This document shows, one piece after another, positions 9,061 to 56,906 of a stretch of DNA of 64,000 nucleotides. The notes under the pieces were generated by a model. It was given only the letters and a program-made list of their open reading frames with translations. It was not told the origin of the DNA and searched no databases. The stretch comes from Candidatus Omnitrophota bacterium (GTDB lineage: Bacteria; Omnitrophota; Gorgyraeia; Tantalellales; Tantalellaceae). Each line of letters begins with the position of its first letter. Position 1 is the stretch's first letter. The stretch lies in the NCBI GenBank assembly GCA_049643885.1, contig JBARQV010000033.1:11229-75228 (forward strand). The letters run 5' to 3'. A program made the translations under genes and the position numbers.

Positions 9061-12000
9061 ATGAATTGGCTTAAGAGGGTTCACAGGGATCAAGAGATCA
9101 AGAAGCTCTTCAGCTTCCAGAGGCGGAGTCTAGCCCTTAAAGCCTGTTCAGTTATCACCTCGGTCGCGTTTTTCTTTAATATTCTTTCTTACGATATCGC
9201 CCTTTCGGGCCCCCTCCAGAAAAAACAACCGGCTACGGAAGGGCAAGCCTGGGCCATACGAGTTCCGCCGGAGTCTTCTCACGTCGGCTCCGGTGTGAAC
9301 TCAGGCCCGGGCACTCCCCAAAAGCTTACCATCAAAGGCTTTACACTGCCCGAATATCTTGGTGTGGTGACCGACAGGTTCAGTCCCCCGGCGAAGGAAC
9401 CTGATAAGATAGTGGTTTTGATACAGGACGCGCATTGTAACTATGCGGCCCAGAAAAAGATCGCCGAGATCGTCCGGCATTTCAACAAGCTCTACCGCGT
9501 GCGCGTCGTCAACATGGAAGGAGGTAAGGGCGATTATAACCTTTCGATATTCCTGGATATAGGCGACAAGAAGGTCAGGGAAGAGGTATCCGATTACTTT
9601 GTGAAAGAGGGGCAGATAAGCGGCGCTGAATACTTCGCCATAAACGATCCTTTCAGGGCCTACTTATGGGGAGTGGAAACCTCTGAACTTTACCTGGAGA
9701 ACCTTAAAGTTTACAGGGAGTCCCTTGGATACAGAGGTGAAGTCGAGTATTTCCTGGATTCGCTTACCTATATTTTGAACAATCTTAAGCGGCACATTTA
9801 TTCGAAGGAACTCTTGGATTTTGACAACGAATATTCCCGGTATAAGGCCGGCGATATCAAATTCAAGGATTACGTGAATTACCTTTTAAGCGTGGCCAAG
9901 GAGAAAAAGGTATATATCAAGAATCTCCTGCACCTGTATTTGTTATATCACTCGATAGCATGGGAAGGGGAAATAGATTTCAAGAGAGCGGATCATGAAA
10001 GGGATATCTTGATCAGCAGGCTTGAAGGCGTTCTGTCCGGGAAGGAGATGGACGAGCTTATCAACAAGACCGTAGAGTTCAGGAACAAGAGGCTTTCGCA
10101 GACCGAATTCTACGGGTATCTCCTGAAGAAGGCGGAGGAAGTGAAGCTCGACCTGGCCGATTTCCCGGAGTTCAAAAAATACCTCGGTTATATTTTCCTC
10201 TATCATGTCGTGGACAGGGCAAAAGTAATGGAGGAGATAGGCATTCTCGAAAACGCTATAAAAGGATCTCTTTACGAGAACGATAAACAGAAGGAGCTAG
10301 ACCTTCTTTCCAAGCATTTGACTCTTACAAAGAACTTTTTCGACGCCACTTTGACAAGAAGCGATTACGAATATTACGAACAGAACAAATTAGCGTTTGA
10401 AACACAGAATTACATTTCGTTTATAGAAAAAGAAGCCCCAAAGTACAAAATAACCGCCCAACTGCCTTCTGATATACAAAATCTTGATTTTCGTATGGCC
10501 GAAATGGACAAGTTCTACGAATACTCGTTCAAGAGGGACCTCGCCTTCCTCGACAACATAAAATTTAATGCGACTGAATCTCCAACATCCAACATCCAAC
10601 AACCAACATCTATTTTGATTACCGGCGGTTTCCACGCCGAAAATCTCTGTAAGTTGTTTAAAGAAAATGATATAGCATATATATGCATAATGCCGAATTT
10701 TACGAGCGAAGAAGGTTATGTTTGCCCGTATTTCGACCTCTTGGCGGGTGAAAGACCTCAAGTTGAAATGATGATCAGCGATATCATGGGCTATTCACTT
10801 GCTATAGCGAGCATACTCAGCCAGCTGGGGCCGGACGTGTATGATGAAAACGCTCGCAGGATATTCGGGCTTCATGTTCAGTGGAAACGCGCTGTGGCGG
10901 AAGGAAAAGGCGGCCTCGCGATCATGGCAGAGGATGGGAGATTCCTCGGCGCGGTCAATGCCAGGGGAGAGATCGTCCCTGAAGACAGGTCAAAAGGCTT
11001 TGAAGTGGCGCGGGTTCCGGCAGTTGTCCCGGCTATCGCTCCGGCAACTCCCGAATTGGTGGATCTATTCGGGAACTGGTTCGATCTGAATCTGGAACTT
11101 GATTATTTTAGCGGAGAGTTTGAAAGAGGTGAGGCGAAAGGGCTGGCGGCGATACAGGAAGGGGTGCAGGCCGAAAGAGGCATGTATCCCAAAGAAGAAA
11201 TAGAAGGCGGCGATTTCTATTTTGACCTGGAAGCCTTCTCTTATTTTTCAAGGGGACTTATCGACAAAGCCACTTTAGCGGAAGTCATGAGGCCTTACAG
11301 CGATAAGCTGCCCGGCCAGATAAATGTTATAGTCGTGGACAAAGGACCAAAGGCCGTAGCCAGATACGGGAACACTATAGCGATAAACCGCGCCGTGTTC
11401 GAGCTTACGCGCGGCGTCTCTCCCGTTATCCGCAATTTGATCACTATGAAACTCCTGGACACGGCCCTGAGGGCAAGCAGCGAGACCGGTATCAGGGAAG
11501 GAGAGGATCTGGGTATTTCGCTTGCAGACCTGAGAAGGGTCGGGAGCCGCGAGAAACCGGACAGGATAATGGAAGTCATACGCCAGGTATTCTCTCCAGA
11601 GTCAAAACTCGCTTCCGACGAACAGGAAGAAAATCTGATCCTGGCTTACGATTATGACCAAAAATATATTGCTCAAGGCAGTTTCAACGAAGAGATACTG
11701 AAACAGGCCATTAAAAGAGGTTTCACCACGGTCATAGTTAGATTTTTGGAAGGCGACGTCATAGGAGGACAGGTCGAGGTCATATTCGCGAACAAGTCGG
11801 ACGTGCTAGTGGAACGGATAGATATGCTTCCCGAGAATATGGATGTTCTTTTCTCGGCCGTCGGCGAGAACATGGAACCGGGCTCCGTATGGCGCTTCAC
11901 GCGGCGTTTCCTGACATACGATATTAAACGACGAGCGTTTCTCGCAAAAGAACGCCCCAGGATAATGACCTACGAATTGGAGAGAAAACTTGAAGTGTAT

Positions 12001-15000
12001 CGCGAGAGGATCGGCGACAGGGAGCTTGAAGGGCGGAATTTCGGGTATGAATACAAGATAGAACGTGACGAAGCGAGCCCTCTTGGCAGGAAGGTAAGGA
12101 TAGACCTGACAGAGAACCCCCCGGAAGGGTTTGAGAGCGCGAGGCCTGTGATCAAGGCGAAAAAATATACTTACGAGGACATCTATGAATATTTTAATTT
12201 TTATCACAAATACTGGATGCCCAAAGAAGGACACGGTGATTGGGAGCTTAGCAGGTTCCTGAGGGAGATAGTGGCCAGTGACCTCACTCCTGAAGAGAAG
12301 CGCGAAAAGATACTGGGGTTCTTCGAAGAGTTGACCCAGGGGCAGATGTATATGGATGGCAAGGGCGTGCCGGCGCCTGATAAAGACCCGCTTGAGCTCA
12401 TCAACGGGGAGATAAGGGGCACCCCGGGACGGCTTCCCTTTGAGGAAAGGCTTCTAGCAATGCTCAAATCGCCCCCCGAAGTGCCCCCTGTCACAAGACT
12501 GGCACCTGGTAAAGGTGTCCTGGATATTGTCGCAAGGGGTGTTTTCAAGGTAACCGATCCCTTTATGGCCAGGGAAGATGCTGAAGATCTTGTCGTTCCT
12601 GTTGTTGAGGAAGGTATTATGTTTCTCGCGCTTGCGCCGTATTTATGGGGCGGCGCGCCGTCTTTGGTCGTTCTTTTTGGGGCAGTACTTTATTTTCTTT
12701 TGAGGGCAGGGTTTATTGCGGCTCACGCGCTGCAGGACAGGGCGCCCCCGGGGAGAAGAAGGACGATCTTTGAACGAATTATCATCCCCGCCCTTATATC
12801 TGTTCCCGCTTTCTCACTTCCTGTTCTGGCATTATTAGGAGCTTCTCCCATAGCCCTTGGCATTGTTGCGGGCGCGGTGACACTTTTACATATGGCCGCG
12901 AACCGCTATGTTACTTTTGCAGGCTCAAAGTTACAGAAGGCTGTTCTTGGAAGAAAGGTCGAGCGGTATATCGGAGAGACGGGGACAGATGTCGAAAGGT
13001 TTAAGGTAGACATCGGGGATGACAGGGAATCGTTACAAAAGTTTATGAAGAAAGTAAAAAGTGTTTTTATGACCGAAAGGGAGGTCGCATCATTGCAAAA
13101 CGTTCTGGCGCACGGGGAGGATTCGCTTGAAAAAATGGGGAGAGTGGGCAAACTTTGGCAGGCCGTGCGTTACGGGAACGTGAGGCAGAAAAAAGCCGAT
13201 TTTCTTAGAGGATTCCTGGAAGAAATAAACAGCACCGGGACCTTTAGTGTAGGAAGGACCGAAACTTTAGAACCAAGAAGCGTAACAAGGACCAAGAGTG
13301 ACATGGAAATGATCGAAGAACAGCGTAAGGTATACGTGGAAGGAGTGGAAGAAATATTCAAGCGCGTAGAATCGGGCCAGGAATATGATACCGGGGAACT
13401 GGCTGGGTTATTCGACAGGATCATACTCAATGTCCTGACACAGTTCGGTATAAAGGATGACGTTATGGTGGTAGGCCTCGGGAGTTACGGTAGAGGAGTC
13501 GTCCCGATAGGGTCGGATTGTGATGCCGTGTTCATAGTAAGAGGCGCCTTTCCCGGGCTTGTAAAAAAAGATATACAGGAAAGGGTGGTCTGGATACTGG
13601 AACAGATCGGCCTGGACGTCGATCCGGGAGCTCTCCTGCCCGGGGACCTGAAAGATTGGCCTACCATGGACCAGCTCAGGGCGGCATTCGATGAAGGGGT
13701 CGAAAGCGGGGAGCTTGTGGGTATAAATATGCTGTTCCTCGCGGATAACAGGCTTGTTTCGGATGCCGATGAAAAGTCGATACCGGAGTTCGGGGAATAT
13801 TGCAGGATGAGAGACGAAATAATCACCGGGAAGCACCCGGCATTTATCGCTCACCTTGTCCTGGAAATAGCGAATTTCCTGAGGATAACCGGCGGAACAA
13901 CTCCGGAAGCGGCGGGACCTTCAGCGGGCCTTATAGATATATATTACAGGTACGGGGATGATAAAGAAAGAATCATGCAGGAGATCGGCAAGAAGATAAA
14001 ATCTTTATATACAGTTGAGGATGGCGAGCTGAGACTAAGCCCCTTGGGCGAAAGTGAAATACTCCGCGACATCAGACAATTCAACGTTAAACAGGATTCC
14101 GGCGGCATGAGGAGCCTTGACTTTGTTTTATGGACAGGGAGGGTCTTGAGCGGGGTGAACGACCCCGATCCTTACAAGATCATTGAGCAGTTGTCCGCCG
14201 AGTACGCGACCGGCGAAGAAAAAGAAATATTGAGGGAAACAATGGATTATTTCATCAAGTTAAGGTCCGTTATTAATTATATCTCCTCTTTGGAAAAGGC
14301 CGAGGGGACTCCCGAGTTCATCGAACATGACACTATAGATTTCAACGATATCAGCAGCATTGAGCAGATCGTCAAAGTCATGGAACCGCAGAACGAGCTG
14401 GTGCGGAAGATCATGTCATTAGAAGGACAGGAACAGGATATAGAATCCGAACTGAGGAAACTAAGCACTATAGATACCGAGGATGTAGAGGAGAAAAGAA
14501 GATTATCGGGAGAGAGGCGGTCAGTTCGGGGAGAATTGTTGAAATCACGCAAAGAATTGGCAGGTGAGTTCCGGGGAAAGGTCAATTCCATGAGGGGTAA
14601 AATAGCGGCAATCGGTTTAAAGGCACTGGATAAATATCTTGTAAGCTTTATAAGGGAAGGCAAGATAAGGGATGAAGACGCTTTGTACGTGATGGTCCCC
14701 ATCGGCCAAAGGGCTCTTCTTGACCTGAAAAGAGAACTGAAACACCGGGGAGAGTATAGAAAAGACCTTGCCAGGGTAATGCGCGAGCGATATCGCGCTT
14801 CACGGGCTGATCTCGGCAAAGGCGTCCTGGGATTTATCGCGGCAGGTGTTTACAAATTTACTGATACCGTCATGGACCTTTTTGGCCGTGAAAAGACGCC
14901 CGGCTACAGGGCTTTTGTCGAAGATTATTTTATTCCCGTTATAGAAGAAGGCGCGATGTTCCTCGTTCTACGCTCCTGGGGGACGTTGCCGTATTTTCTC

Positions 15001-18000
15001 ATCCGGCCTGGGTTCATACTGGCTCACGCGTTCCAGGACAGAGCTCCTCCCGGGAGAAGAAGGACGATCTTCGAACGGATCATCATCCCCGCCCTTATAT
15101 CAGTTCCTGCCTTTTCACTTCCTATTCTCGCGCTTTTGGGAGCATCGCCTGTAGTACTTGGAGTTGTCGTAGGTGCGGTGACACTTTTACACATGGCCGC
15201 CAACCGCTTTGTAACTCTAACAGGTTCCAGACTCCAGAAAGCCGTTCTGGGAAAGAAGTTTGTCCAGCCTCCCGTGAGAAAGGCCAGGATCATTTCAATA
15301 AGAGGAGAAAAGGTTTCAGATACGTATCCTGTTGTGCCTGTAACTGTTCGCGAGGAAGCGGAACCGGTGCCCGGAGTCGAATTTATAGCGACGGAGGAGA
15401 TACTCGATGAACTGATGACCGATTATCCCGAAAGGATCCTCAGAGACCGCGGGATGGACGCCGAACAATATTCAAGGCTCGCTGAAACAGCCGTTGTCAC
15501 GAACAAAAAACCGATCAAAGTCGATCCCAGCGGGAGGGAATGGATAGGTGAGCGGTATATCATCGGGCGGACCCCGTCGGGCGAGGATATTGAACTTGGC
15601 AGAGGCGGCGTAGCTGTTGTTTATTATGGCCTTGATACTCAAAGTGGAGATGAGATCGTTTTAAAGGTTCCTGAAGAAGAAAGAGCTGTTCCCGGTAAAG
15701 AAAAATTACCGTTTGAACTTAAGAAAATGTCATTATTACGCGAGGCGGCATTCATAGAATACGTGAAGGAGCAGGAAAAACAAGGCCGTGTGGATCTTGA
15801 GGGCGGGGTGGTAGATTTACGCGACGCAGGGGTCTACAGGGGGGCGTACCTTGATGATAAGGGGCGTCCGACCGGGAAGGAATACACCAATTATTATATA
15901 GCAATGGGTTACGTTCATGGTTTGACGCTGGGGGATCTTTTGAACCAGCGCGGTCCACTTGCGGAAGACGAAGCCAGGGCTCTTTTTGAAAGGGTATACG
16001 ATACAACAAGAAAACTCCACAAGATAGGCGTGATCCATATGGACATAAAATCGGATAACATCTTCATTCCTCTGGTCAACGGCAAGCTTGAGTTCGGGAA
16101 AGCCGTGCTGGGAGATTTCGGCTTTTCGATAAAAGTCGATAATGTCGATGGCCAGTATGTTCACGATTTCACGTACGGGACTGAAGGGTACGTACCGCCG
16201 GAGGGGGGCGTAGGTGTATTTTCAGGGAGGAACGACATGTACGCCCTGGGCATGACGCTTTATGAAATGATGACCGGCACGGTAATCGAAGATGGCGTCA
16301 AGGCGGAATTCACGCCCGACATGGAAAGTGCGCTTCCCGCCGATCTGGTCGCTGTTGTCAGATTGTTGACACAGGAAAACTGGGAAGAGTCGTCAGTTCT
16401 GGCGGAAGGCGTAACCGGGATATTGGAGAGAGGAAAAGTCGCCATAGCGGACGATGTCGTTCTTGAGGATTTTGAAGGGTTTGAACTCGAGGACATGGTC
16501 TTAAAGCTCATGAAGCCCGGTCAGAAATACTCAAGGGAGGAATTTAAAGCCGAGGTAGAGAAACTCAAGTTATTTTTAACGCGTGCGATAGGGGTCAATC
16601 TCCGGCAGATGGCCGGTGATATTTCGGAAGCGAAGTTCGGCGCCGGCAAGCGCGACGGATTCAAACGTTTCATCGTTAAAAAGATCCGGCATGCCGGGCG
16701 CGGCGATTACAAGCACGCGTTAAGGGTCGAGGCTGATACCGACCAAGGCCGGCAGGTCTTCGCGGTCAAGTTCCTGAAGCCCAAAAGGCCCGAGTATACT
16801 TTTGAGGGTTTTAAGAAAATGATAAAAACAGAATACGAAAATAGCAGGAGATTAAGTGAAACGGGTTTAGCGGCGGATTATTACGGGGAACCTTATTATG
16901 TCGGTGAACGGTTCGATGAAAAGTTCTCAAAAGGATTAGAAGAGCATGGCATCCTGGGCTTGCTTGTGGGTGAATATGTGGAAGGTACGCCTGTCAGTGA
17001 GATATACGAAAGAGATGAAAGGAAAGAAGCGTATCGCGGATTAGTGAAAGCCACGGTCCGTCTCTGGCTAGAGACTTATGATCCTGAAACGCAGGCCGGT
17101 CTTGTTTTGTATGACCTTGCCGGGAGGAATTATGTGCTTGAGGATGGAACGGGCAGAATAAAGACCATAGATCCCGCGTTTTTGGATCCGTTCAATGTTG
17201 ATTACCTGAGAGACATGATAAGCGCTCTTCTCATAGCGGAATTGGCCATGGAAAAAGAAGGTATAAGGTTCGACGCGATGCCGGGCGGCGCGGACGAGAT
17301 GTATTTCCTTTCGGCGATACCGGAGGAGATAAATGATTACCTGAGGGAAAAAGGCGATAGTTTGGACGAAAGGAAAAAGAGGGCCGTCATGGAGCTTCGT
17401 GGAGCCGAGGCGTTAAGGGACATCCAGGTAGCCGTTGAGGAAAAGATCGACCTACAAAAAGCTATTGCTGACGCGTCAGGCAGAGGCGATGTGATACGGA
17501 TGGCCGAGCTAAGCGACGGAAAAGAACTGGAAATACATGACGCTAAAGCGTTAGTGCGGGACGATGAGGAGATGTTCAAAGAACTTCTGGCGGCGGTCCA
17601 GAAGGTTGTAGCTTCTTCTTTCGGGCCTTCAAAAGCATACGGGCTTGCGGCTGAGTTGAGGATAAAGCAGATCCTCCAGGAGAACGAGGTGATGATAGCC
17701 GTTGTGGGTAACGAAGTGATCGGCTTTCTGGCATATCAGTTCAAGCCCGGGGAAGCCCGGAGTATTTTAGACTGGTTTGCCGTGATGCAGGAGCATCAGG
17801 GCAAAGGCATCGGCTCGAGGATGATGGACGAATTCATGGAGGTGTCACTGAAAGCCCGCGAGACCGGCATCGAAAAGGCCTGGTGGCATTCATGGGACGA
17901 AAAGTCAGACGATTTTTATATTGGATATTTTAGAAAAAAAGGAATAAAACCTGAACAGGTCGGACGTAATTTTACTCTTGGACTGGATGCAGTTGGCGCG

Positions 18001-19431
18001 GCAATGGCTCCTGACCACGGGGCGATAATGAGAGGGCTCAGGCCGGAGGACGTGGAAGAAGCCATAACCGGTGATGTCGACAAGAGCACGTTGTCCGAAG
18101 AGTTCAAGGCGATCGAAGAAATGCTTGACGATAGCTCATTAGAAAGGAACAGGACACTTCGCGAGCTGGCAGATAAACTGGAGATCCCATGGGATCTTAT
18201 GCTTTCAAGGATCAAAAAAGCCAGGGACGACCTTCTGAAAGGAAATAAAGCATTGAAGGAGTTTCCCGCCATTGTCCGCGGTCTCGATGAATATGCTCTT
18301 GGCATGGCCACGGAAGACAAAATAACTTACAGCACAGAGATCCTCGCGATGTTACCCGCGCCCTTGAGAGCCGAATATGTCCTGCACGAAGCGATCTGTT
18401 ATTATTTCCCGGGATTGGAGGGGCACCAGACCGCCAGGCAGATACAGATGGTCCTGTTCCCGCGGAATTACGGGAACCTGACGCCTGAAGAAAGAGAAGA
18501 ACTTGAGGGGACAGAGGCGCTGACAGGTGACTTAACGTTGTTTTTAAGCGCATTTATCGATGTAACGGCCCCGCCGCTTGAAGGCCCGCCGGCTGAAAGA
18601 AAAGCGCAGGAGATCTACGCCCAGGCCAGGATGCTGGCCCCGGCGCTTGCCGATGCCGTAAGGCGGGGCGCGCCGACGTATGACATAGGGCCGTCATTTT
18701 TCAGGGACATGGCCCGGGACGAGCAATGCAATAAGGAAGTAGCGAGGATACTCGGCAAAAAAGGCCACAATATTTACGCCAGGCATTGCGCGTTCGACCC
18801 CACGAAAGATACTGCCGCGAAATGGTTCGAAAATATGGTCGAAGACAGGCCCGGGGGAGTCCTTTACGACATGCTGGAGACTTTCAGCCGGGACGCCTCA
18901 GTAGACCCAAGGACCAGGATGACTATCAGGCTTATAAGAGGGCCGGATGAAGCAGGGAACAAGGCAAGAAGAAAAGATATGGAAGGTTTTATTTTAAGGA
19001 ACCTTAAGCTCATGAATCCCGATCTGGCAGAGAGACTGGAGACGATGAGCGAGGCCGAAAGAAATGAGTGGTTCAACAAACATGTGAAGGTATTGGACGT
19101 GGATGTCGGGAATATTGAACACGTCAACCCTGTGCTGGATCTTATTACGGACATCGGCGTCATGGAGCTTGACCGCTACGCGAAGCACGATTACGAAGGT
19201 AAAGCTCCGCGGGACCTTGAGGAGAACCTTGTCAGACTATTGAACCTTTCGATAGGGAGTTTTGTGAATATCGATACGAAACAGGCGCTTAAAAAGGTCT
19301 CCCGTAAAGATCTATACAGGGTTTTAGCAGCCCTTTTTACGGGAAATATGTACATTATGGTAAGGAAGATCGACTGGGGCAGCATAAGGGAGAAGATCAG
19401 GGCCCAGAATGCTGTCCTTAAATCGTTGTAA
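9061..19431 (+). CDS. Giant multidomain protein (3456 aa): N-terminal signal/anchor + conserved 'QDAHCN' module, two polytopic TM modules, GlnE/GlnD-like nucleotidyltransferase, Hanks-type Ser/Thr kinase, second atypical kinase-like fold, GNAT acetyltransferase-like segment, conserved C-terminal domain
   Basis: ATG at 9061 preceded by GAGGT 6 nt upstream; 14 nt after stop of upstream ORF; 10.4 kb uninterrupted ORF; multiple recognisable catalytic motifs in-frame. Confidence 0.9.
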   Translation: MNWLKRVHRDQEIKKLFSFQRRSLALKACSVITSVAFFFNILSYDIALSGPLQKKQPATEGQAWAIRVPPESSHVGSGVNSGPGTPQKLTIKGFTLPEYLGVVTDRFSPPAKEPDKIVVLIQDAHCNYAAQKKIAEIVRHFNKLYRVRVVNMEGGKGDYNLSIFLDIGDKKVREEVSDYFVKEGQISGAEYFAINDPFRAYLWGVETSELYLENLKVYRESLGYRGEVEYFLDSLTYILNNLKRHIYSKELLDFDNEYSRYKAGDIKFKDYVNYLLSVAKEKKVYIKNLLHLYLLYHSIAWEGEIDFKRADHERDILISRLEGVLSGKEMDELINKTVEFRNKRLSQTEFYGYLLKKAEEVKLDLADFPEFKKYLGYIFLYHVVDRAKVMEEIGILENAIKGSLYENDKQKELDLLSKHLTLTKNFFDATLTRSDYEYYEQNKLAFETQNYISFIEKEAPKYKITAQLPSDIQNLDFRMAEMDKFYEYSFKRDLAFLDNIKFNATESPTSNIQQPTSILITGGFHAENLCKLFKENDIAYICIMPNFTSEEGYVCPYFDLLAGERPQVEMMISDIMGYSLAIASILSQLGPDVYDENARRIFGLHVQWKRAVAEGKGGLAIMAEDGRFLGAVNARGEIVPEDRSKGFEVARVPAVVPAIAPATPELVDLFGNWFDLNLELDYFSGEFERGEAKGLAAIQEGVQAERGMYPKEEIEGGDFYFDLEAFSYFSRGLIDKATLAEVMRPYSDKLPGQINVIVVDKGPKAVARYGNTIAINRAVFELTRGVSPVIRNLITMKLLDTALRASSETGIREGEDLGISLADLRRVGSREKPDRIMEVIRQVFSPESKLASDEQEENLILAYDYDQKYIAQGSFNEEILKQAIKRGFTTVIVRFLEGDVIGGQVEVIFANKSDVLVERIDMLPENMDVLFSAVGENMEPGSVWRFTRRFLTYDIKRRAFLAKERPRIMTYELERKLEVYRERIGDRELEGRNFGYEYKIERDEASPLGRKVRIDLTENPPEGFESARPVIKAKKYTYEDIYEYFNFYHKYWMPKEGHGDWELSRFLREIVASDLTPEEKREKILGFFEELTQGQMYMDGKGVPAPDKDPLELINGEIRGTPGRLPFEERLLAMLKSPPEVPPVTRLAPGKGVLDIVARGVFKVTDPFMAREDAEDLVVPVVEEGIMFLALAPYLWGGAPSLVVLFGAVLYFLLRAGFIAAHALQDRAPPGRRRTIFERIIIPALISVPAFSLPVLALLGASPIALGIVAGAVTLLHMAANRYVTFAGSKLQKAVLGRKVERYIGETGTDVERFKVDIGDDRESLQKFMKKVKSVFMTEREVASLQNVLAHGEDSLEKMGRVGKLWQAVRYGNVRQKKADFLRGFLEEINSTGTFSVGRTETLEPRSVTRTKSDMEMIEEQRKVYVEGVEEIFKRVESGQEYDTGELAGLFDRIILNVLTQFGIKDDVMVVGLGSYGRGVVPIGSDCDAVFIVRGAFPGLVKKDIQERVVWILEQIGLDVDPGALLPGDLKDWPTMDQLRAAFDEGVESGELVGINMLFLADNRLVSDADEKSIPEFGEYCRMRDEIITGKHPAFIAHLVLEIANFLRITGGTTPEAAGPSAGLIDIYYRYGDDKERIMQEIGKKIKSLYTVEDGELRLSPLGESEILRDIRQFNVKQDSGGMRSLDFVLWTGRVLSGVNDPDPYKIIEQLSAEYATGEEKEILRETMDYFIKLRSVINYISSLEKAEGTPEFIEHDTIDFNDISSIEQIVKVMEPQNELVRKIMSLEGQEQDIESELRKLSTIDTEDVEEKRRLSGERRSVRGELLKSRKELAGEFRGKVNSMRGKIAAIGLKALDKYLVSFIREGKIRDEDALYVMVPIGQRALLDLKRELKHRGEYRKDLARVMRERYRASRADLGKGVLGFIAAGVYKFTDTVMDLFGREKTPGYRAFVEDYFIPVIEEGAMFLVLRSWGTLPYFLIRPGFILAHAFQDRAPPGRRRTIFERIIIPALISVPAFSLPILALLGASPVVLGVVVGAVTLLHMAANRFVTLTGSRLQKAVLGKKFVQPPVRKARIISIRGEKVSDTYPVVPVTVREEAEPVPGVEFIATEEILDELMTDYPERILRDRGMDAEQYSRLAETAVVTNKKPIKVDPSGREWIGERYIIGRTPSGEDIELGRGGVAVVYYGLDTQSGDEIVLKVPEEERAVPGKEKLPFELKKMSLLREAAFIEYVKEQEKQGRVDLEGGVVDLRDAGVYRGAYLDDKGRPTGKEYTNYYIAMGYVHGLTLGDLLNQRGPLAEDEARALFERVYDTTRKLHKIGVIHMDIKSDNIFIPLVNGKLEFGKAVLGDFGFSIKVDNVDGQYVHDFTYGTEGYVPPEGGVGVFSGRNDMYALGMTLYEMMTGTVIEDGVKAEFTPDMESALPADLVAVVRLLTQENWEESSVLAEGVTGILERGKVAIADDVVLEDFEGFELEDMVLKLMKPGQKYSREEFKAEVEKLKLFLTRAIGVNLRQMAGDISEAKFGAGKRDGFKRFIVKKIRHAGRGDYKHALRVEADTDQGRQVFAVKFLKPKRPEYTFEGFKKMIKTEYENSRRLSETGLAADYYGEPYYVGERFDEKFSKGLEEHGILGLLVGEYVEGTPVSEIYERDERKEAYRGLVKATVRLWLETYDPETQAGLVLYDLAGRNYVLEDGTGRIKTIDPAFLDPFNVDYLRDMISALLIAELAMEKEGIRFDAMPGGADEMYFLSAIPEEINDYLREKGDSLDERKKRAVMELRGAEALRDIQVAVEEKIDLQKAIADASGRGDVIRMAELSDGKELEIHDAKALVRDDEEMFKELLAAVQKVVASSFGPSKAYGLAAELRIKQILQENEVMIAVVGNEVIGFLAYQFKPGEARSILDWFAVMQEHQGKGIGSRMMDEFMEVSLKARETGIEKAWWHSWDEKSDDFYIGYFRKKGIKPEQVGRNFTLGLDAVGAAMAPDHGAIMRGLRPEDVEEAITGDVDKSTLSEEFKAIEEMLDDSSLERNRTLRELADKLEIPWDLMLSRIKKARDDLLKGNKALKEFPAIVRGLDEYALGMATEDKITYSTEILAMLPAPLRAEYVLHEAICYYFPGLEGHQTARQIQMVLFPRNYGNLTPEEREELEGTEALTGDLTLFLSAFIDVTAPPLEGPPAERKAQEIYAQARMLAPALADAVRRGAPTYDIGPSFFRDMARDEQCNKEVARILGKKGHNIYARHCAFDPTKDTAAKWFENMVEDRPGGVLYDMLETFSRDASVDPRTRMTIRLIRGPDEAGNKARRKDMEGFILRNLKLMNPDLAERLETMSEAERNEWFNKHVKVLDVDVGNIEHVNPVLDLITDIGVMELDRYAKHDYEGKAPRDLEENLVRLLNLSIGSFVNIDTKQALKKVSRKDLYRVLAALFTGNMYIMVRKIDWGSIREKIRAQNAVLKSL
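13390..14290 (+). other. GlnE/GlnD-type nucleotidyltransferase domain inside ORF 9061-19431
   Basis: VVGLGSYGRGVVPIGSDCDAVFIV matches hG[GS]...[DE]h[DE]h nucleotidyltransferase motif with downstream helical domain typical of GlnE/GlnD-like enzymes. Confidence 0.55.
15550..16300 (+). other. Hanks-type Ser/Thr protein kinase domain inside ORF 9061-19431
   Basis: GRGGVAVVYYG (Gly loop), IVLKV (VAIK), HMDIKSDNIF (catalytic loop), GDFGFS (DFG), GYVPPE (APE), DMYALGMTLYEMMTG. Confidence 0.75.
17600..17900 (+). other. GNAT acetyltransferase-like segment inside ORF 9061-19431
   Basis: IGFLAYQF...FAVMQEHQGKGIGSRMMDEF resembles GNAT motif A (Q/R-x-x-G-x-G/A) with preceding beta-strands. Confidence 0.5.
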
Positions 19432-19446
19432 TATAAGAGGTGTGTG

Positions 19447-29484: not shown

Positions 29485-32400
29485 ATGAAAAATATATGGC
29501 TAAAGACAATAAGTGTTGTTGTAGCGCTTACTTTCTTCCTGAGCATGCTGCCTATCGATGCACTAGCAGTTGAAGATCCGGAGGGTGCGCCTTTACCTTT
29601 TGCTGAAGGAAAAGGAGATGAAGCGGCGGTGTTTAACCCGGAGACTTTCGCGCTTCCCACGCAGATGGGAACGGTAAAAGATTCGTGGAAAGGGAAGACT
29701 GATAAGGCGGTTATTCACATCCAGGACGCCCACTGTAATTATGACGCGCAGAAGCAGATTTCGAACATCATTGAATATTTAAGCGGAGTGTATGGTGTAG
29801 ATACTGTCAACCTGGAGGGCGGTAGCGGCGAATACGACCTCGCTGTGTTTACAAATATCCTTAATAAACATGTGAGACAGGAAGTCGTTGATTCATTTGT
29901 CCATGACGGCCTTGTCAACGGGGCGGAATATTTTGCCGCGACCAATCCGGATAAGGTCAAACTCTGGGGGATAGAAAAGGTGGATCTTTACCTCCAGGAC
30001 CTGGATGTCTACCGTGAATCGCTTACGTATAAAGAGCAGGTGGACAGGTACATCAAATCGCTTACCCACATCTTGAACAACCTCAAAATGCATATCTTTC
30101 CCAAAGACCTCCTCGAGATGGACATGAAATATACGCAATATAAGACGGGCGAATTGAGTTTCAAGGATTACCTGGTATTTTTGCTGGATAAAGCGAAACA
30201 GATGGGGATAGACATAAAAGGATTCGCGAATATCTTCCTGTTGAAACAATCTCTTGAACAGGAAGGCCGGATCGATTTCAAACTGGCCAGCAGGCAGCGC
30301 GAGGACCTGGTGAAAAAGCTGGAAGCGTCCCTGTCGAGGAAGCTTATCAAGGAACTGGCCGGGAAAATGGTCGCGTTCCACGAGAAAGAGATATCCCAGT
30401 ATGACTTTTATGAATACCTGATCGAAAAAGCGAAAATGGTAAATATTGACATGAAAGAATACCCGGAACTGCAGAAATACGTGGTATATATCGCCTTATA
30501 TCACGCGGTAAATAAATCCAAAATAGTGGCGGAGTTAAATTCCCTTGAAGACAGCATCAAGGTGTCCCTTTTCACTAACGATGACCAGAGAGAGCTCGAC
30601 GTCCTTTCAAAGAACCTGGTCCTTACGAAGAACATGTTCAACATTACAATGACCAAAGAAGATTACGAATATTACATGAAGAACAGATCATCTTTTGACG
30701 TTCGTAATTATTTATCCTTTATCGAAAAGCAGGCTCTCCGCTTCAAGATAACCGCGAGGCCCGAGCAGGATATAGAGCGGCTTGACGGGTACCGCGAGGA
30801 TATCCAGAAATTCTTCGAGATATCGTTCAAGAGGGACGATGCGTTCATGAAAAACATGAAATTCTCAGAGCAGCAGGGGCAGGGCAGGAAAAAGATGCAG
30901 ATAGCGATCGTCATGACGGGAGGGTTTCATACTGAGAACCTGTGCGAGCTTTTCAGGAAAAAAGGTATTTCTTACGTTTCCGTAATACCGACGTTTACCA
31001 ATCCCAAAGGGTACGAGAGCCCTTATTTCAACCTTCTCGGAGGAAAAGAGGCCGGTTTAGTCGAGCAATTTAATGAAATATTCGCTTCGATGTCCGCGTT
31101 GCAGGTAGCAAGCATGCTGAACAACGCGCTCGGATCACAGGTGTGGGGAGAACGTAACATCAGGGCTTTTGATGCTGCGGCTATCGTCAGGGAGGCGATA
31201 GCAAGAGGCATCGAAGTAACGGACATAACAACGGAAGCCGGAAACATCATCTTCCGCATGGCGGATGGAACTACCGAAACAATGGCTATCACAAAGTTTT
31301 GGAAGATAGTGGGAGATGTTGACATCGACGCACAGATGGACGCACTGCCCGAAAACGCGTTTTCGGATATCATAATGGAACGCGGCCAGGTACAGGAGAT
31401 CAAAAACTTTCTTAAGGAAATAGGCGTGCCTGCCGATGCCGTTGATGCGTATATGGATGAACTTTTCACGGGTATAAATCCCGATACAGAACTGAATTAC
31501 CTGAGGTTTGTGGAAGGGGTGGATTTTGGAGGTCATCCGGGCGGATTTGGAATAAGACTTAACAGGAAATACGGTGACGCCCAGGGGCGTCTCACGCGTG
31601 AAGGGATGGCGAAACTTGTCCATGAGATAGTAGGCGGTCTCTACGGCAACCATCTTATGGCCGGTAAAGCGGAAAGCTGGTTCAAACAGTCGGCCAGGGC
31701 AAGAAGAGGCAAACAGCTGGCAGAAGCGCCCGCGAATTCTCCGTTAGGAAAATATGGCAGGCCGGTATGGAGGTTGAATTTCGGTGAAAGAAACAGTGTC
31801 GAGAGGGATTTCGCGACGCGCGGGGAAGGAGAGGAAGAGGCAGCGGCAGCGGCGGAAGCGGTACCCGGCGCGGCAGTCGAGGGTGCGAGAGTGGCCGAAG
31901 TGGGAATGGAATTTTTTACCGCAGCGCCCGAAGTGGGTGCCGTGAACGAGATTGCCGCGAGGATCCAGACGGGCGACGCGGCCAGTGTCGTGGAGCAGAT
32001 CGATGCGGTAGTTCTTGAGATAAATAACAGGGCTAATTTAGCGGATACGGATGCCGCCAGGGATATGCTTTGGGCCTTTTTAGGATCGATATTTCAGAAT
32101 GGAGCGGCTCTTCAAGGACTTACTTTTGAAGGCAGGTCTGTCAGGGAATACGCCCTGGCCGCGGCCGGGCATGCTTTATATACCATTGACAAAAATCTTG
32201 GTCATGTGCCCGAAGGCGTTCCTGTCGATCGTTACTCTCGAGCGGTCTGGCTGGACCGTTTAATGAATGCCGCGTTTAAGAACCAGCAAGCGGGACCGGG
32301 TTATACAAACAGCGTAAGGGGCGCTCTTCGAGGCGCGATCAAAGGAATACTTAAGGGCAATACGGATCTTCCCGTGGAGGCTGAGGATGTAGCTCCCGTC

Positions 32401-35400: not shown

Positions 35401-36831
35401 GATATTTACGGGGGAAGGATTGAAGGGGCCGAATTGTTCGGGCGTGATATGTTCGCGCTTCGTGATCAGGTACAGGCTTTGCAGGATTCATTGCGCGGGG
35501 TTGCCTGGGACCAGGCGGCGGGTCAGATCGGCCAGGAACTTGCGACCCCGGAGAACACTTTTCGCAGGAGACTAGCCGAGTCTATGGTACCTGCGATGAG
35601 AGGCATGGACAGGATGCTGATCCGTGACGATACGCTTCCGTCGATCATTTCCAGGCTTGAGCGGATGCCTCTATTCCGGTGGCAGCAGGCCTCGCGGGCC
35701 AGGTCCGCCAGGAAGACGCCCGAACAGGTACGGGGTGTAATAAAAGTGCTGGAATCATACCGCGACATATTCATGGGCAGGTCGGGCATGGTATCCGAAA
35801 GGCTGCAGCGCGCCTGGGACGGGTCCAATGAAGCGGCGTACAGGGAAGCGATGATAAGGATAGTCGAGGCTTCTGGAGAACTTGGCGATCCTTTACTTAA
35901 AAACGGTACATATGATCTCGCGGTAATAGACCAGGCGATAAAGACCGCCCAAACGCAGCTTAGGTTGAGCGAGGCTATAGCATCGCGCGCGGCCGAAGAA
36001 GGAAGGGCAGCCATGGGCGAAACTGTCATCAACATGAATCAGTTCGCCGAACAGATCGAGGAAGCGATGGGGACCCTGATGCAGCCCAATCTTCCCGGGA
36101 AGATGAGCGCCGGTGTTCCCGTCGGGACGCCGGAAGACGAGGTGAACTGGAGAAATGCCGTCAGGGCTAAATCCAAGATCAACAGTTTCTGCAAGACTGC
36201 GTTTGGTAAGGGAGTCGATACCCCGGCCCAGGCGGACGGGAACCAGATAGGTCTTTTCAGGATAGTCAGGGGCGATCCCATGGAGACGCTTACCGGGGAA
36301 CATGGTATGGCTCAAGACTGGCATAAGAGAGCCCGGGCCGGAGAGCCGTTTGTCGCGTATATTCCTGAGATGGAAGGCCTGCCGTCGAACATCGACAAAT
36401 TCCAGATCAGCAATTACAGGGATTTTGTGCTTGCGGTGATACAAATAAGAGCTAGCGCGGGACAGAAGATGTACCAGGACCTGCTGGATCTGATAAACGC
36501 CGGCGATATTATTCTTTTGCGTGACAGCTATTCGGATTGCACCGCGGGGCCTACGGTCGCGCCGCCGGAGATATTCAGGCGGTTTCTGGGTATGAGGAAG
36601 ATAGTCCATATAGAGGATACCGAAGAAGGGTCATCGGCCATGGCGTCGGCACTTACGGATTTTAAAAAATTCCTTATTCAGGCCTCACCAGACAGGGAAG
36701 CCGCAAGGAGAGCTCTTGAAGGCATGAATAATCTGACCGATATACTTAAGAATTACGTGATGCAGTGGAGCGTGGTCGAGAGAATAGGCCAGGAAATAGA
36801 AGCCTACATAGAAGTGGTCATATCCGTATAA
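29485..36831 (+). CDS. Giant protein (about 2448 aa) with signal peptide + conserved 'QDAHCN' module, second module shared with ORF at 19447, long helical/coiled C-terminal region
   Basis: ATG 29485 with GAGGTG RBS 5 nt upstream (in-frame TTG at 29467 possible); 7.3 kb uninterrupted ORF; clear paralogy of first about 500 aa to ORFs at 9061/19447/36881. Confidence 0.9.
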   Translation: MKNIWLKTISVVVALTFFLSMLPIDALAVEDPEGAPLPFAEGKGDEAAVFNPETFALPTQMGTVKDSWKGKTDKAVIHIQDAHCNYDAQKQISNIIEYLSGVYGVDTVNLEGGSGEYDLAVFTNILNKHVRQEVVDSFVHDGLVNGAEYFAATNPDKVKLWGIEKVDLYLQDLDVYRESLTYKEQVDRYIKSLTHILNNLKMHIFPKDLLEMDMKYTQYKTGELSFKDYLVFLLDKAKQMGIDIKGFANIFLLKQSLEQEGRIDFKLASRQREDLVKKLEASLSRKLIKELAGKMVAFHEKEISQYDFYEYLIEKAKMVNIDMKEYPELQKYVVYIALYHAVNKSKIVAELNSLEDSIKVSLFTNDDQRELDVLSKNLVLTKNMFNITMTKEDYEYYMKNRSSFDVRNYLSFIEKQALRFKITARPEQDIERLDGYREDIQKFFEISFKRDDAFMKNMKFSEQQGQGRKKMQIAIVMTGGFHTENLCELFRKKGISYVSVIPTFTNPKGYESPYFNLLGGKEAGLVEQFNEIFASMSALQVASMLNNALGSQVWGERNIRAFDAAAIVREAIARGIEVTDITTEAGNIIFRMADGTTETMAITKFWKIVGDVDIDAQMDALPENAFSDIIMERGQVQEIKNFLKEIGVPADAVDAYMDELFTGINPDTELNYLRFVEGVDFGGHPGGFGIRLNRKYGDAQGRLTREGMAKLVHEIVGGLYGNHLMAGKAESWFKQSARARRGKQLAEAPANSPLGKYGRPVWRLNFGERNSVERDFATRGEGEEEAAAAAEAVPGAAVEGARVAEVGMEFFTAAPEVGAVNEIAARIQTGDAASVVEQIDAVVLEINNRANLADTDAARDMLWAFLGSIFQNGAALQGLTFEGRSVREYALAAAGHALYTIDKNLGHVPEGVPVDRYSRAVWLDRLMNAAFKNQQAGPGYTNSVRGALRGAIKGILKGNTDLPVEAEDVAPVRVWTWDAERKMPVPAPGIGVVRLPNGEKIDKKLYDLARARNAAKDAQDQGDGRSAIMAFNAANKLRAETVEMLENVSPEARERLGLPSPDELAEEAREDPIAQLEVGEIGEGELAAAEGTRLIENMFTFVDRTGRARPMSAAEAERTIGDLDVMIALIVAGNSAKVDLTTAVNNNLGTMDRYVAEFVNSMAHPSRRQARWAGLRYTARESFAKPELNALRAMKMMRQLLRQKLEQLKAQEVQRDNVSYNTFVASTSRGIYQAQELLGYLAAQDEPADVTIQAIRHMNQRVGLLRTNIEALSILQRRVEQNLGDEERSREMAAQLGELEKMLGEMQKSLSIFVINHETQLSSAMKNEDAKERLSELIRGPEDDKTKGLLGQPVVKHQEIIDQITDAAAEGRSGAAILDPNLAQVKDNEFTAADAEGGVFSQMRDTIIRERHNGFEPGRPVMSGELLLELRNAILGVNLLMQQAMGIREDVPFSDEEKALMTLARRYGERLAVSIHSQGIRPADTGWTGLPTRDPAFLRMARLMLQRKIGDLMLEDANNLMDLVEKQLERTERGELAPPTRGQMAGLVRELYRADSELDRFMELGVVGEAGRNAFTDRFVAFWRRAEAIDPRYGSDNLETLLEWAEKAGMIDRIGFPARIGATADRLLDETVEALQERIDARRDFEAALARAKREIPSMRSTEGQRSYLISMTSRALNEELNKPEDQRSYEDINELRADLARYEAERNELRARRRALMTEAILALTGRNIEAGTIHDSWLDVDPVRLESEIRFLRDTAGTDIYAHNYTIFQRRFRAIMDKKDLIRTLNGLLPGTARPIPMGAAELIASARALVRRAIAALVDSGGTARQVLALLDAGTANANTAVAGLSAAELSDMLDELEERGDVVYEDKNLEAGGIKDRLELIGLLNMQLPRGRKIATNIDNLTMDRRELIRTAVNGAESASNIYSILQMSRDEDISLTALSGIKVQIVGLGLDANGLREILNDIEALGYDIYGGRIEGAELFGRDMFALRDQVQALQDSLRGVAWDQAAGQIGQELATPENTFRRRLAESMVPAMRGMDRMLIRDDTLPSIISRLERMPLFRWQQASRARSARKTPEQVRGVIKVLESYRDIFMGRSGMVSERLQRAWDGSNEAAYREAMIRIVEASGELGDPLLKNGTYDLAVIDQAIKTAQTQLRLSEAIASRAAEEGRAAMGETVINMNQFAEQIEEAMGTLMQPNLPGKMSAGVPVGTPEDEVNWRNAVRAKSKINSFCKTAFGKGVDTPAQADGNQIGLFRIVRGDPMETLTGEHGMAQDWHKRARAGEPFVAYIPEMEGLPSNIDKFQISNYRDFVLAVIQIRASAGQKMYQDLLDLINAGDIILLRDSYSDCTAGPTVAPPEIFRRFLGMRKIVHIEDTEEGSSAMASALTDFKKFLIQASPDREAARRALEGMNNLTDILKNYVMQWSVVERIGQEIEAYIEVVISV

Positions 36832-36880
36832 TCCTTTCTTCGGCTTTTACGGATGTTGGGATAGAAAAGGGGGTTTTGAG

Positions 36881-39800
36881 ATGAAAAAAATCACAACCAT
36901 TGTGGTTTTTTTTATGTTTCTCGCTTGTTTCGTCCTCACGGACGCCCGGTCCGTGGTGGATATAGACGCTCCCTATGATGTGCCGGAAGTCGGTGAACTG
37001 CAGCTTGCGCGCCTGGATGTTGATACATTTACCATTCCCGCGCATCTTGGCGAGATCAAATATAAGTTTAAAGGAGATCCCCGCAAGGTTGTCATCCATA
37101 TCCAGGACGCCCACTGCAACCATTTCGCGCAAAAAAAGATCGCCGATATTATCGACTACCTGAACCGTGAATACGGCATAAAGACGGTCAACCTTGAAGG
37201 CGGCGTGGAAGAGTATGACCTTTCCGTGTTCACCTCCATTACCGGCAAAGCCATAAGGCAGGAGGTCGCCAACCATTTCCTCAAGAAAGGCGAGATAAAC
37301 GGGGCGGAATTCTTCGCCGTGAATAATCCCGATAAGGTGCAGCTCTGGGGCGTCGAGGACAAGGACCTGTATCTTGCTAATCTGAAAGTCTACAGGGATT
37401 CCCTTGCGCATAAAGAAGAGGTTGACGAATACATGAAGGGGATCACTCACGTGATAAATAATCTCAAACTGCATATCTACGACGGTGAACTCCTTAAGAT
37501 GGACATGAATTACAACGCTTACAAGGAAAAGAACATGCAGTTCCGTGAATATCTGGAATTTCTGCTTAAAAAAGCGCAGTTCCATGAAATCGATATGACG
37601 AAGTATCAAAATTTGAATCTTCTCGAAAAATCGATCGAACAGGAAGAGGCTATAGACTTCGAGACGGCAAGCAACGAAAGGAAGACCCTTATCGATGAAC
37701 TTAAGAAGAACGTCTCGAAGGCCGACTTGCGGAATATCGTGCAGATGACCGTCGACTACAAGACAAAGAGGATCACGCCGAAAGCTTTTTATACGTATCT
37801 TCTCGACAAGGCAAAGGATGAAGGGATAGACGTAAATAGGTTCCCGGTCCTTGCCGGTTATATAGAATATGTCTCCACCTTTGAATCCGTCGACCGTTTC
37901 AAAATAATGAAGGAACTGGATGACATGGAAGCGGAGATAAAAAAAGACATCTACCAGAACAATACGCAGAAAGAACTCGATACGCTTTCCCGCAACCTGG
38001 TCATCATGAAAAATATTTTCGATATCCGCCTGAATAAGACGGATTACGATTATTACCTGGAAAATGAGGATTCTTTTGATGCCATTAATTTTCTCGAGTT
38101 CATCGACAGGGAAGCCCCGAGATACAGGATCACGGCACGGCCGGATCCGGAAGTCACAAGGTTGGACGTATACAGGGAAGACCTCTCCCAGTTCTTTGAG
38201 TTTTCCTTTCAAAGGGACGAGGTCTTCCTCAGGAACATGAAGTACAGCCGTGTCGCCGACGGCATCCAGGCGGCTATACTGATGACCGGCGGTTTCCATA
38301 CCGAGAACCTGTGCGTGCTTTTACAGGAAGATAATATCTCATATGTCTCCATTCTCCCCAGGTTCACCATGGACAGGGGTTATGTGAGCCCTTATTTTGA
38401 TATCCTTGCGGGGGATTCGACGGGCATACAGGAAGTTTTGCGCTCTGTCTTTGCACAACAGGCCGCGATGCTGCAGGTGCCTGCGAAGATGTCGCCGAAA
38501 ATAGCGGGATTTGTTTTCTCGGCGACGGAATTGGCGGCGTTCAGGGCATCAGTCCAGCTGACGGCCATGATGTTGATGGAAGCTGGAGATAGGGGGATGC
38601 AGACGGGCCAGGTAATGAAAGTCCCCATAGTGGACGAAGAGGACAGGGAGCAGGCTGCGATATACGCGAGGGTGACCATGAGAGAAGGCAGGGCTGTGGG
38701 AATAGATCTGGTTGAAGAAGAAGTAACTCCCGATGTTGAGATGAAAGTGACGATAGACGAACTCAACGAGCTTTCCCTGCCAAGACCCGCCGCTCCCAGG
38801 GTGCCGGAAGGCGCTGCCGTCGCGGAAGGCAGGCGGGGGCTCAAAGAAGACAGGTATCCCAGGTCCGAGGAGTCTTTAAGGGAAATGGTCAGGACGGGAG
38901 AGGCCCGGCTTGCCGAGGACGTGGACCTGGCCGCGGTGAAGGCAGGGGCGAACGAAGTTCTCCGTGGTGAGATAGGCGCCGAGCTTGCTTCTCTCATTGA
39001 GGACCTCAGGGGAAAGAATCCGGATGATACGGTAATGCTTGGAAAGGTGATCGGGCGAAGAGATATGAGAAGGCCTTATACGGTGAAGGACGTCCTGGAC
39101 AGGCTCCGCGGGAGAGGTTTCACGATAAGCGAAGATGATCCTATCGGCGACCTCGAGGAATTACAGAGAAGAATAGCCGCGGCCGAGATGGGAGATGTAA
39201 GGTTTTACACGGCTTCCCTCGGAGATACAATATACGCGCAAAGCTACAGGGACGAGGCCGGCGTCACGCATATCATTCTCAATTCCGACAGAGGCATCGC
39301 TGGGAAATATCTAAGAGACCGGGAAGTATTGGCCAGGCTCGGCGCGCATGAAAGGCTGGAAGCGGACAAAGCGAACCTGGGCCTTGATCACGCCATGGTC
39401 GAGCACCTGGAGGTCATCGCGAACGGTTACAGCGGCATGACGCCGTTAAGCGGATTTATTCTGGATAAAGAAGTGGCGAGATTTGAAGACCTTGATGATA
39501 TAGGCGAAATACATGACAGCGACCCGGATGGGAGCTTTTATATGGGAAATTACCTGCAGAGGCAAATATATCTTGCAAGAGACATGCTGGGGCACACCGA
39601 TCCGAAAGGCCCTCCCGTGGATGAGATCCTGGAGATCTCCGAGGAAGAGATGCTAAGGATAAGACCCCAGTATGAAAGGATAGGCAACGCAGCGGGAAGA
39701 TACTTCACGTTGACTTACGGGCCGCGGCTCAGGCTTCACCTGTGCGTGACCGGGCAGGCGGCGGCGGTACGTGAAGAGATAGCGGGAAGCAAGGATTTCC

Positions 39801-56849: not shown

Positions 56850-56906
56850 ATAGTCAACTTACAAGTTAAGAGATAAAATATCAAGAAGGACTTGTGAAAG
56901 CGGTTA

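Follow-up and report, generated by a model that had tools for sequence, protein, structure and literature searches.

On balance, we consider it fairly probable that the N-terminal module shared by four large proteins of a Candidatus Omnitrophota bacterium (NCBI GenBank assembly GCA_049643885.1; contig JBARQV010000033.1, positions 11,229 to 75,228 of the forward strand, 64,000 nucleotides (nt), hereafter the window) is an exported, catalytic His/Glu hydrolase of the TIKI type. This module, which we call the head, stands at the front of big, hypervariable proteins of Omnitrophota and related bacteria of the Planctomycetes-Verrucomicrobia-Chlamydiae (PVC) group, and would probably serve in processing or docking the polypeptides of this family. 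Omnitrophota are widespread, uncultured and probably parasitic or predatory nanobacteria. The first 40 kb of the window consists of six consecutive plus-strand genes for large proteins, named A to F:

8-9046, plus strand: protein A, an open reading frame (ORF) truncated by the window start; 3,957 amino acids (aa) in the public record
9061-19431, plus strand: protein B, 3,456 aa
19447-26406, plus strand: protein C, 2,319 aa
26545-29262, plus strand: protein D, 905 aa
29485-36831, plus strand: protein E, 2,448 aa
36881-40192, plus strand: protein F, 1,103 aa

The ATG starts of B, C, E and F agree with the public gene calls, and the intergenic gaps are 14 nt between A and B and 15 nt between B and C.

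A preliminary description of this DNA had proposed that B, C, E and F carry a collinear N-terminal module, and this was borne out. The N-terminal ~590 aa of the four proteins are collinear, with 38-44% identity to B in a MAFFT alignment, and pairwise BLASTP comparisons of the four copies gave 41-47% identity over 506-807 aa with E values of 1e-132 to 1e-163, far beyond chance. When all six frames of the window were scanned with a hidden Markov model (HMM) of the family, the only matches were the ORFs of B, C, E and F, at 678-706 bits. In each of them the module sits after a single hydrophobic segment. The nucleotide ranges first proposed lie inside the module and are essentially right, but slightly short compared with its cores (9340-10749, 19624-21009, 29647-31044 and 37028-38413) and with the HMM envelopes, which run on to 10911, 21198, 31251 and 38617:

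9340-10911, plus strand: head of protein B (family HMM 678 bits, aa 27-617), with IQDAHCN at 9421-9441, NMEGG at 9511-9525, LWGVE at 9664-9678, KRDLAF at 10531-10548, TGGFHAENL at 10621-10647 and PYFDLLAG at 10726-10749
19624-21198, plus strand: head of protein C, the copy used for the structure model, with predicted catalytic residues D86 and H88 (in 19696-19716), E116 (in 19786-19800), E169 (in 19939-19953), R455 (in 20806-20823) and H483 (in 20881-20907)
about 19957-20832, plus strand: helical insert of protein C, splitting the alpha/beta core
29647-31251, plus strand: head of protein E (family HMM 706 bits), with IQDAHCN at 29719-29739, NLEGG at 29809-29823, LWGIE at 29962-29976, KRDDAF at 30829-30846 and TGGFHTENL at 30916-30942
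37028-38617, plus strand: head of protein F (family HMM 688 bits), with IQDAHCN at 37100-37120, NLEGG at 37190-37204, LWGVE at 37343-37357, QRDEVF at 38210-38227 and TGGFHTENL at 38285-38311

Among the strings that had been listed as invariant, LWG(V/I)E, YR(D/E)SL and TGGFH(T/A)ENL follow an identical pattern in all four paralogs. The others deviate in one paralog, several of them by one or two substitutions, with VLIQDAHCN and NMEGG..DYNL in B, GSEYFA and AFIDREAPKYKID in C, SFIEKQALRFKIT and IPTFT in E, and VINNLK, YKEKNMQFREY and LPRFT in F. The portion of A that was analysed, from aa 632 onwards, contains no module by the family HMM, which also gave no support to a WTGGFH string in A near the window start as a second module copy. 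Exact-match DNA searches in collections of genomes and metagenomes gave no hit for the preceding ~630 aa of A. Outside the head, BLASTP found the remaining sequences of B, C, E and F to be unrelated, except that C and E have a further ~200 residues in common after it; A and B have a C-terminal region of ~300 residues in common.

The idea that this module defines a protein family held up when 1.84 billion cluster representatives were searched with a profile: there were 10,348 matches at E<=1e-3, 7,287 of them at E<=1e-30. In the best 150 of the 10,348 matches, from which the details were taken, the module always starts at aa 1-67 of a protein of 630-6,707 aa, and the named ones come from Omnitrophota or other PVC bacteria. 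A word-indexed search yielded 77 relatives, the named ones all being annotated as "hypothetical protein" in metagenome-assembled genomes (MAGs) of Omnitrophota or other PVC-group bacteria. Two narrow peptide patterns run against species-representative genomes recovered 402 loci, several of them sharing one genome; every locus carries the label Omnitrophota or, where the MAG was named automatically, "uncultured Planctomycetia". No family in Pfam or NCBIfam matched the module, and a tblastn search of plasmid and phage collections was likewise negative.

The C copy was modelled by AlphaFold2 with 64 family sequences, and the model reached a predicted local distance difference test score (pLDDT) of 92.1 and a predicted template modelling score (pTM) of 0.82. 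Its core is alpha/beta, with strands at residues 20-27, 53-56, 105-109, 414-421 and 438-444, and displays a central sheet of about five parallel beta-strands with helices on either side, as is characteristic of the TIKI fold. Residues 112-403 form helices only, in an insert that splits the core and makes up ~290 of the ~450 residues first described as the module, a division that the preliminary description did not contain. A faint resemblance to an EF-hand pair (centrin-2, E 0.03) was seen in this insert at profile positions ~203-312 (C aa ~230-340); calcium-binding acidic residues are not evident there, and we take the match as chance or mere helical resemblance.

Residue conservation was counted in a diverse set of the same size (64 members), reaching down to 22% identity. 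Invariant or nearly so are Q26, D27, H29, Q35, E57, G58, E94, E110, Y115, R396, G421, G422, F423, H424, T425, P444 and Y456; of these, E57, E110, R396 and H424 are found in 64/64 members, and D27 and H29 in 61/64 (model numbering; D27, H29, E57, E110, R396 and H424 are D86, H88, E116, E169, R455 and H483 of protein C). Columns conserved at >=90% number 22/194 in the core and 5/252 in the insert. In the model D27-x-H29 follows the first core strand, E57 the second and E110 the third, R396 lies in a helix ahead of the fourth strand, and H424 follows that strand. The 2His/2Glu motif of active TIKI enzymes is thus present, with Asp in place of the first Glu, and so is the conserved Arg before the second His. 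The spacing from H29 to E57, 28 residues, equals that of H3902-E3930 in RRSP, the Ras/Rap1-specific endopeptidase domain of Vibrio MARTX toxins (PMC6254334), and of H85-E113 in Bcr135; R396 and H424 are 28 residues apart in C and F, 33 apart in B and 32 apart in E, compared with 29 for R4001-H4030 in RRSP. Escherichia coli YbaP, of the TraB family, has motifs in the same order (GSIH, VEAD, RNLAW, GALH). Judged on the model, the conserved residues of the head (D-x-H, E, E, R and GGFH) probably correspond, in order, to the 2His/2Glu and Arg site of the superfamily. The catalytic set is kept here, as opposed to ChaN-type relatives that have lost it.

Since no profile matched above threshold, the module lies outside every named sequence family, as had been stated at the outset; the predicted structure and the invariant residues nevertheless argue for placing it in the TIKI/TraB/erythromycin-esterase/ChaN superfamily. 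The suggestion of a metal or catalytic site built on an invariant His-Cys pair and the GGFH His fared unevenly. The histidines are predicted, from conservation and from the model, to be part of a probable catalytic site. The Cys after the first His is another matter: it is present in only 47 of the 64 members, with Ala (6), Val (4) or Thr (2) at this position in distant ones, so His and Cys do not form a functional pair, and the Cys was ruled out as a catalytic residue or metal ligand. A metal site is possible because Tiki is a metal-dependent protease, but it is not implied, because RRSP is metal independent and the metal of EreB/Bcr136 is reported to be structural, not catalytic (PMC6254334).

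The location of the head was predicted from the segments that precede it (Kyte-Doolittle hydropathy):

9127-9189, plus strand: hydrophobic segment of protein B, signal peptide or signal anchor, aa 23-43, with basic residues before it
19474-19548, plus strand: hydrophobic segment of protein C, aa 10-34
29491-29574, plus strand: hydrophobic segment of protein E, aa 3-30, followed by a putative signal-peptidase site IDALA/VE
36881-36964, plus strand: hydrophobic segment of protein F, aa 1-28

Across family members with a complete N-terminus, a hydrophobic segment precedes QDxH in 177 of 184, and the family-wide net charge is +3.5 before this segment and -1.1 after it. This charge bias predicts an N-in, C-out orientation with a translocated head, and the module would therefore lie outside the cytoplasm. 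Small-residue motifs after the segment (DALA/VE, IALS/GP and TDA/RS) could be signal-peptidase sites. No second hydrophobic segment was found in C, E and F; A and B have several.

A second constant element, also absent from the preliminary description, lies at the opposite end of these proteins. Most family members finish in a conserved tail of ~45 residues with a helix-strand-helix pattern and the consensus VENIEAMSAEDLEEILNKLLNGVIALRIKKIDWEEIRDWKEAQEAVLRSL then stop (in short form ...LRIKKIDWEEIRDWKEAQEAVLRSL-stop), which is amphipathic and charged. A tail HMM matched 89 of 139 representatives as well as A, B, C and F of the window, and 91 of these 93 matches end at the last residue:

8909-9043, plus strand: tail of protein A (...YFAVKRIDWESIRDRIDAENEVIRSL-stop), tail HMM E 1.8e-9, reaching the last residue
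19294-19428, plus strand: tail of protein B (...YIMVRKIDWGSIREKIRAQNAVLKSL-stop), tail HMM E 8e-10
26269-26403, plus strand: tail of protein C (...GLKIEPINFASIKEYIEMFEKVAVSL-stop), tail HMM E 3.7e-6
36694-36828, plus strand: divergent tail-like end of protein E (...VVERIGQEIEAYIEVVISV-stop), recognised by eye and under the tail HMM threshold
40055-40189, plus strand: tail of protein F (...IFKIKAIDYGEITEFAKSRMEVLRSL-stop), tail HMM E 4e-7

The tail has no match in Pfam, and we rejected a sortase, exosortase or rhombosortase type of signal for it because there is no C-terminal hydrophobic or transmembrane helix. A search of Joint Genome Institute (JGI) metagenomes that was started from the tail gave five loci, and the head was present in all three tail-bearing ORFs whose N-terminal region could be assessed, two of which are tandem neighbours. 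At six other genome loci a tail-ending ORF lies directly upstream of a head-bearing gene, and tandem arrays occur in this window and in loci L001 and L093.

The bodies between head and tail are hypervariable and mostly unannotated. Pfam scans of 21 other members found only sporadic kinase, TPR, HEAT, pyruvate phosphate dikinase (PPDK), metallophosphatase, HATPase, methyltransferase and M50 domains. In Pfam and NCBIfam scans of the whole proteins of the window, the only domains were those of B, namely a protein kinase (15595-16296, aa 2178-2412, E 4e-24) and a GNAT domain (17677-17919, aa 2873-2953, E 7e-9). Proteins C and E share a second conserved domain, which is probably zincin-like:

21166-21960, plus strand: second conserved domain of protein C, directly after the head (GHAGRMGIHIN...LIHEAMAYFFQLGH)
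31168-31962, plus strand: its counterpart in protein E (GHPGGFGIRLN...LVHEIVGGLYGNH)

The head also occurs without any body. In a distant clade (~30% identity, proteins of 490-580 aa), the members have a signal sequence and the module and nothing else. One such homolog, of 516 aa and ~31% identity, lies at 10001-11551 of a contig (JGI Ga0075120_10000003, locus L089) attributed to Ca. Ancaeobacter aquaticus, a genus that NCBI assigns to the phylum Auribacterota; the stand-alone form therefore reaches beyond Omnitrophota, and it may be the ancestral form. Four of six module-only genes examined adjoin large or giant genes in the same orientation; these neighbours are a 14,181-aa protein, an array following a 7,815-aa giant with a C39 peptidase, and a protein of >5,459 aa, together with proteins that have fused phosphoglycerate kinase (PGK) and triose-phosphate isomerase (TIM) domains or phosphoglucomutase domains. 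Among the large neighbours of module-only genes at L092 (6025-14307), and also at L091 and L001, the fused PGK and TIM protein has 1,182 aa and the phosphoglucomutase-domain protein 1,568 aa; both end in a tail-like manner (...MIKVYREVVSSE and ...MIDSYREIVSSE).

In the account that we favour, each protein would be secreted or placed in the envelope and would begin with a signal peptide or anchor and a short acidic linker, leading into an alpha/beta core of the TIKI/TraB/erythromycin-esterase type whose N-terminal half would carry D-x-H, E and E and whose C-terminal half R and GGFH, with the ~290-residue helical insert, which is specific to this family, between them. By homology with RRSP, Tiki and EreB, water activated by the His/Glu site would attack a peptide or ester carbonyl, on the outside of the cytoplasmic membrane or within the periplasm. 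The head would process or dock polypeptides of the family, whether its own or ones encoded next to it in tandem, perhaps via the tail. That it handles the family's own polypeptides is suggested by a constant head and tail on unrelated bodies, by the tandem arrangement and by separate head genes beside giants; at a lower level of confidence, we regard this as the most likely role, in preference to the head being just one of many cargoes. The probably zincin-like domain straight after the head in two window paralogs, C and E, is a further point in favour of the account. The head is probably a processing peptidase, and the processing role suggested in the preliminary description is plausible.

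Several observations weigh against this account. The first acidic residue is Asp rather than Glu, which occurs in 1 of the 64 members. The profiles of TraB (PF01963), ChaN (PF04187) and Erythro_esteras gave no match above threshold; HMM searches of PDB sequences, with the full profile and with a core-only profile, found no relative; and hhalign of the core against a YbaP/TraB alignment, which is shallow and holds close enterobacterial relatives only, returned 3% probability, with no significant result against E. coli YbaP alone. Comparison of the predicted structure with known folds gave a TIKI-like core, but a Foldseek search of PDB was not significant (best match BcR135, E 0.18). Some members of the superfamily, such as ChaN and the C1/C2 region of Pasteurella multocida toxin (PMT), are not enzymes. 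Of the six module-only genes, two have ordinary genes around them, and distant module-only copies are not accompanied by a tail. Finally, the kinase and GNAT domains of B fit full export poorly, because both need cytoplasmic cofactors, although B does have further membrane segments.

The weak similarity to named folds raises the question whether the TIKI likeness could be a generic Rossmann-like coincidence, in an unrelated fold whose conserved His, Glu and Arg have some other role. We think this quite improbable, given that the invariant residues stand at equivalent strand ends, without change of order, and share the H-to-E spacing of RRSP and Bcr135. Moreover, the sole recurrent weak Pfam match that touches the alpha/beta core is ChaN, a model of the TIKI superfamily; it was sub-threshold in 5 of the 64 members (best E 0.003), with the C-terminal end of the profile aligned to a C-terminal protein segment in the single case inspected, and the weak matches that were commoner than ChaN are to small, unrelated helical families. 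If the fold is accepted, the pocket might still bind rather than cut. The head would then be a non-catalytic handle for anchoring, docking or secretion, tethering or ordering large proteins in the envelope through a partner or ligand, for which a sibling's C-terminal tail, a component of secretion or, as with haem in ChaN, a cofactor could be imagined. A constant head on variable bodies, reminiscent of the trafficking domains of polymorphic proteins, would suit such a handle, as would the co-occurrence of head and tail, the tight tandem genes with gaps of 14 and 15 nt, and the existence of the non-enzymatic relatives ChaN and PMT C1/C2. However, the residues essential in RRSP (two His, two acidic residues and Arg) show little or no variation even among members that share only 22-30% identity, and the non-catalytic PMT C1/C2 has lost the motif, whereas conservation in the head is concentrated at the catalytic positions; we therefore consider a purely docking head unlikely. 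A bolder variant keeps the tail in view: head and tail could be a matched pair of an Omnitrophota processing or assembly system of a kind not described before, in which the head cuts or holds its own tail or that of the upstream neighbour. We entertain this as a minority possibility, somewhat less remote than the others discussed here.

Two further readings concern the substrate. The head could be an esterase or other hydrolase whose targets are small molecules or the lipids or polysaccharides of the envelope, much as erythromycin esterases have a lactone for their target, and we rate this at the same low level as the coincidental fold: there is no consistent lipid or polysaccharide gene neighbourhood, the fusion to unrelated giant bodies and the common tail would be left unexplained, and the zincin-like peptidase domain after the head in some members favours protein substrates. 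Alternatively, it could be a delivered effector or toxin domain cleaving a host or prey protein, like RRSP or HopBA1, both of which are among its structural neighbours. The predicted export of these proteins and the proposal that Omnitrophota are symbionts or predators using giant surface proteins (PMC10066038; 10.1101/2023.11.21.568195) would accord with such a role. In known multi-effector toxins, however, the effector is the variable cargo and not the constant element beside the signal sequence; four or five copies in 40 kb and >10,000 clusters with an N-terminal head fit a housekeeping function for the family better, and module-only copies occur in ordinary contexts, Auribacterota included. 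An effector is accordingly the alternative to which we attach the least weight.

Set beside the TIKI superfamily at large (Tiki1/2, TraB/PrgY/GumN, erythromycin esterases, ChaN, RRSP/PMT C1-C2 and HopBA1), the head is alike in its parallel-sheet alpha/beta core and in having (D/E)-x-H after strand one, Glu after the next, Arg, and a later G-x-x-H at a strand end. It differs in having no detectable sequence or profile similarity, in the Asp that replaces the first Glu and in the ~290-residue all-helical insert that splits its core; in addition, it always occupies the N-terminus, preceded by a signal sequence, carries unrelated bodies that reach about 6,700 aa and is matched by a conserved tail at the C-terminus. 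Tiki1/2 and enterococcal TraB/PrgY are membrane-tethered, outward-facing domains that trim or neutralise secreted peptides and proteins, and of the known systems they come nearest to an exported processing hydrolase close to the membrane. Unlike the head, they have C-terminal anchors and are single-domain proteins, Tiki needs metal, and their substrates (Wnt and a peptide pheromone) have no counterpart here. RRSP (DUF5) resembles the head as a TIKI-fold domain within a very large multidomain exported protein, and the residues shown to be essential in it by mutagenesis (E3900-x-H3902, E3930, R4001 and H4030) correspond to the set that is invariant or nearly so in the head; PMT C1/C2 is its non-catalytic relative without the 2His/2Glu motif (PMC6254334). 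The erythromycin esterases EreA/B/C and Bacillus cereus Bcr135/136 are, in contrast, soluble cytoplasmic enzymes of ~400 aa acting on macrolide lactones; the head has no Pfam Erythro_esteras match, and its helical insert differs from theirs in size and position.

The proteins described here also recall the giants of Omnitrophota ("archaeovorins" and dockerin-type proteins), which belong to the same phylum, are large, poorly annotated and membrane-associated or exported, carry sporadic kinase, PPDK and glycolytic-enzyme domains, and have module genes next to them. Those giants exceed 10,000 aa, however, compared with 1,100-3,957 aa for the proteins of the window. C39 or S8 peptidases are the only domains reported as identifiable in their N-terminal regions, and the published accounts of Omnitrophota giant proteins make no mention of head or tail (10.1101/2023.11.21.568195; PMC10066038). 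We found no literature linking Omnitrophota with TIKI, TraB, ChaN or Ere.

As regards the remainder of the locus, protein D is encoded within the array; a hydrophobic segment like that of the family stands at its N-terminus and a vaguely tail-like end (...IEDLQDIYNKQKNLLAAA) closes it, with the head absent. On the 3' side the array is followed by ordinary metabolic genes, encoding an aldo-keto reductase, a glycoside hydrolase of family 1 (GH1), a short-chain dehydrogenase/reductase (SDR), an acyl carrier protein (ACP), a ketoacyl-ACP synthase (KAS), an acyl-CoA dehydrogenase and an electron-transfer flavoprotein (ETF), then by SMC and a GGDEF protein, and finally by a further giant ORF that leaves the window end (56870-64000, plus strand, >2,370 aa). 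The signal-like N-terminus of this last ORF (IAAITLLCFITLDIAWAYP) is family-like, and no head module was found in it by the family HMM and no Pfam domain. Both this ORF and D were considered as family members on account of their similar signal sequences and were rejected because the HMM did not find the head. Within B, a multi-pass membrane segment of ~165 aa is duplicated with 63% identity (about 12493-12960, aa ~1145-1300, and 14800-15261, aa ~1914-2067), and aa 989-1157 of protein A (window numbering) are related to it. The motifs VEEG.MFL, AHA.QDR and LLHMAANR in these segments are reminiscent of CPBP/Abi intramembrane proteases, with a negative result in Pfam. A word-indexed homolog search with the C-terminal 297 aa of A (8153-9043) returned zero matches, A itself included; B and F are present in that set, and protein A is probably missing from the index.

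The family is new at the level of sequence families and unusual in architecture, and belongs to a known structural and mechanistic kind. If head and tail did prove to be a matched pair, each genome would use the pair to mature, release or chain head to tail, into an envelope "coat", dozens of large proteins that are otherwise unrelated, in a new sorting principle comparable in scope to the sortase and exosortase systems and built on a TIKI-fold enzyme. As judged from the predicted structure, the TIKI superfamily would be extended to a lineage too divergent for sequence methods. For >10,000 protein clusters the head provides a defined, testable element, a putative His/Glu hydrolase that is predicted to be exported and for which catalytic residues are named, to which the C-terminal tail and, in some, the zincin-like neighbouring domain are added as landmarks. 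Since the large and giant proteins of Omnitrophota are almost entirely unannotated, two HMMs, one for the head and one for the tail, could improve the annotation of the phylum.

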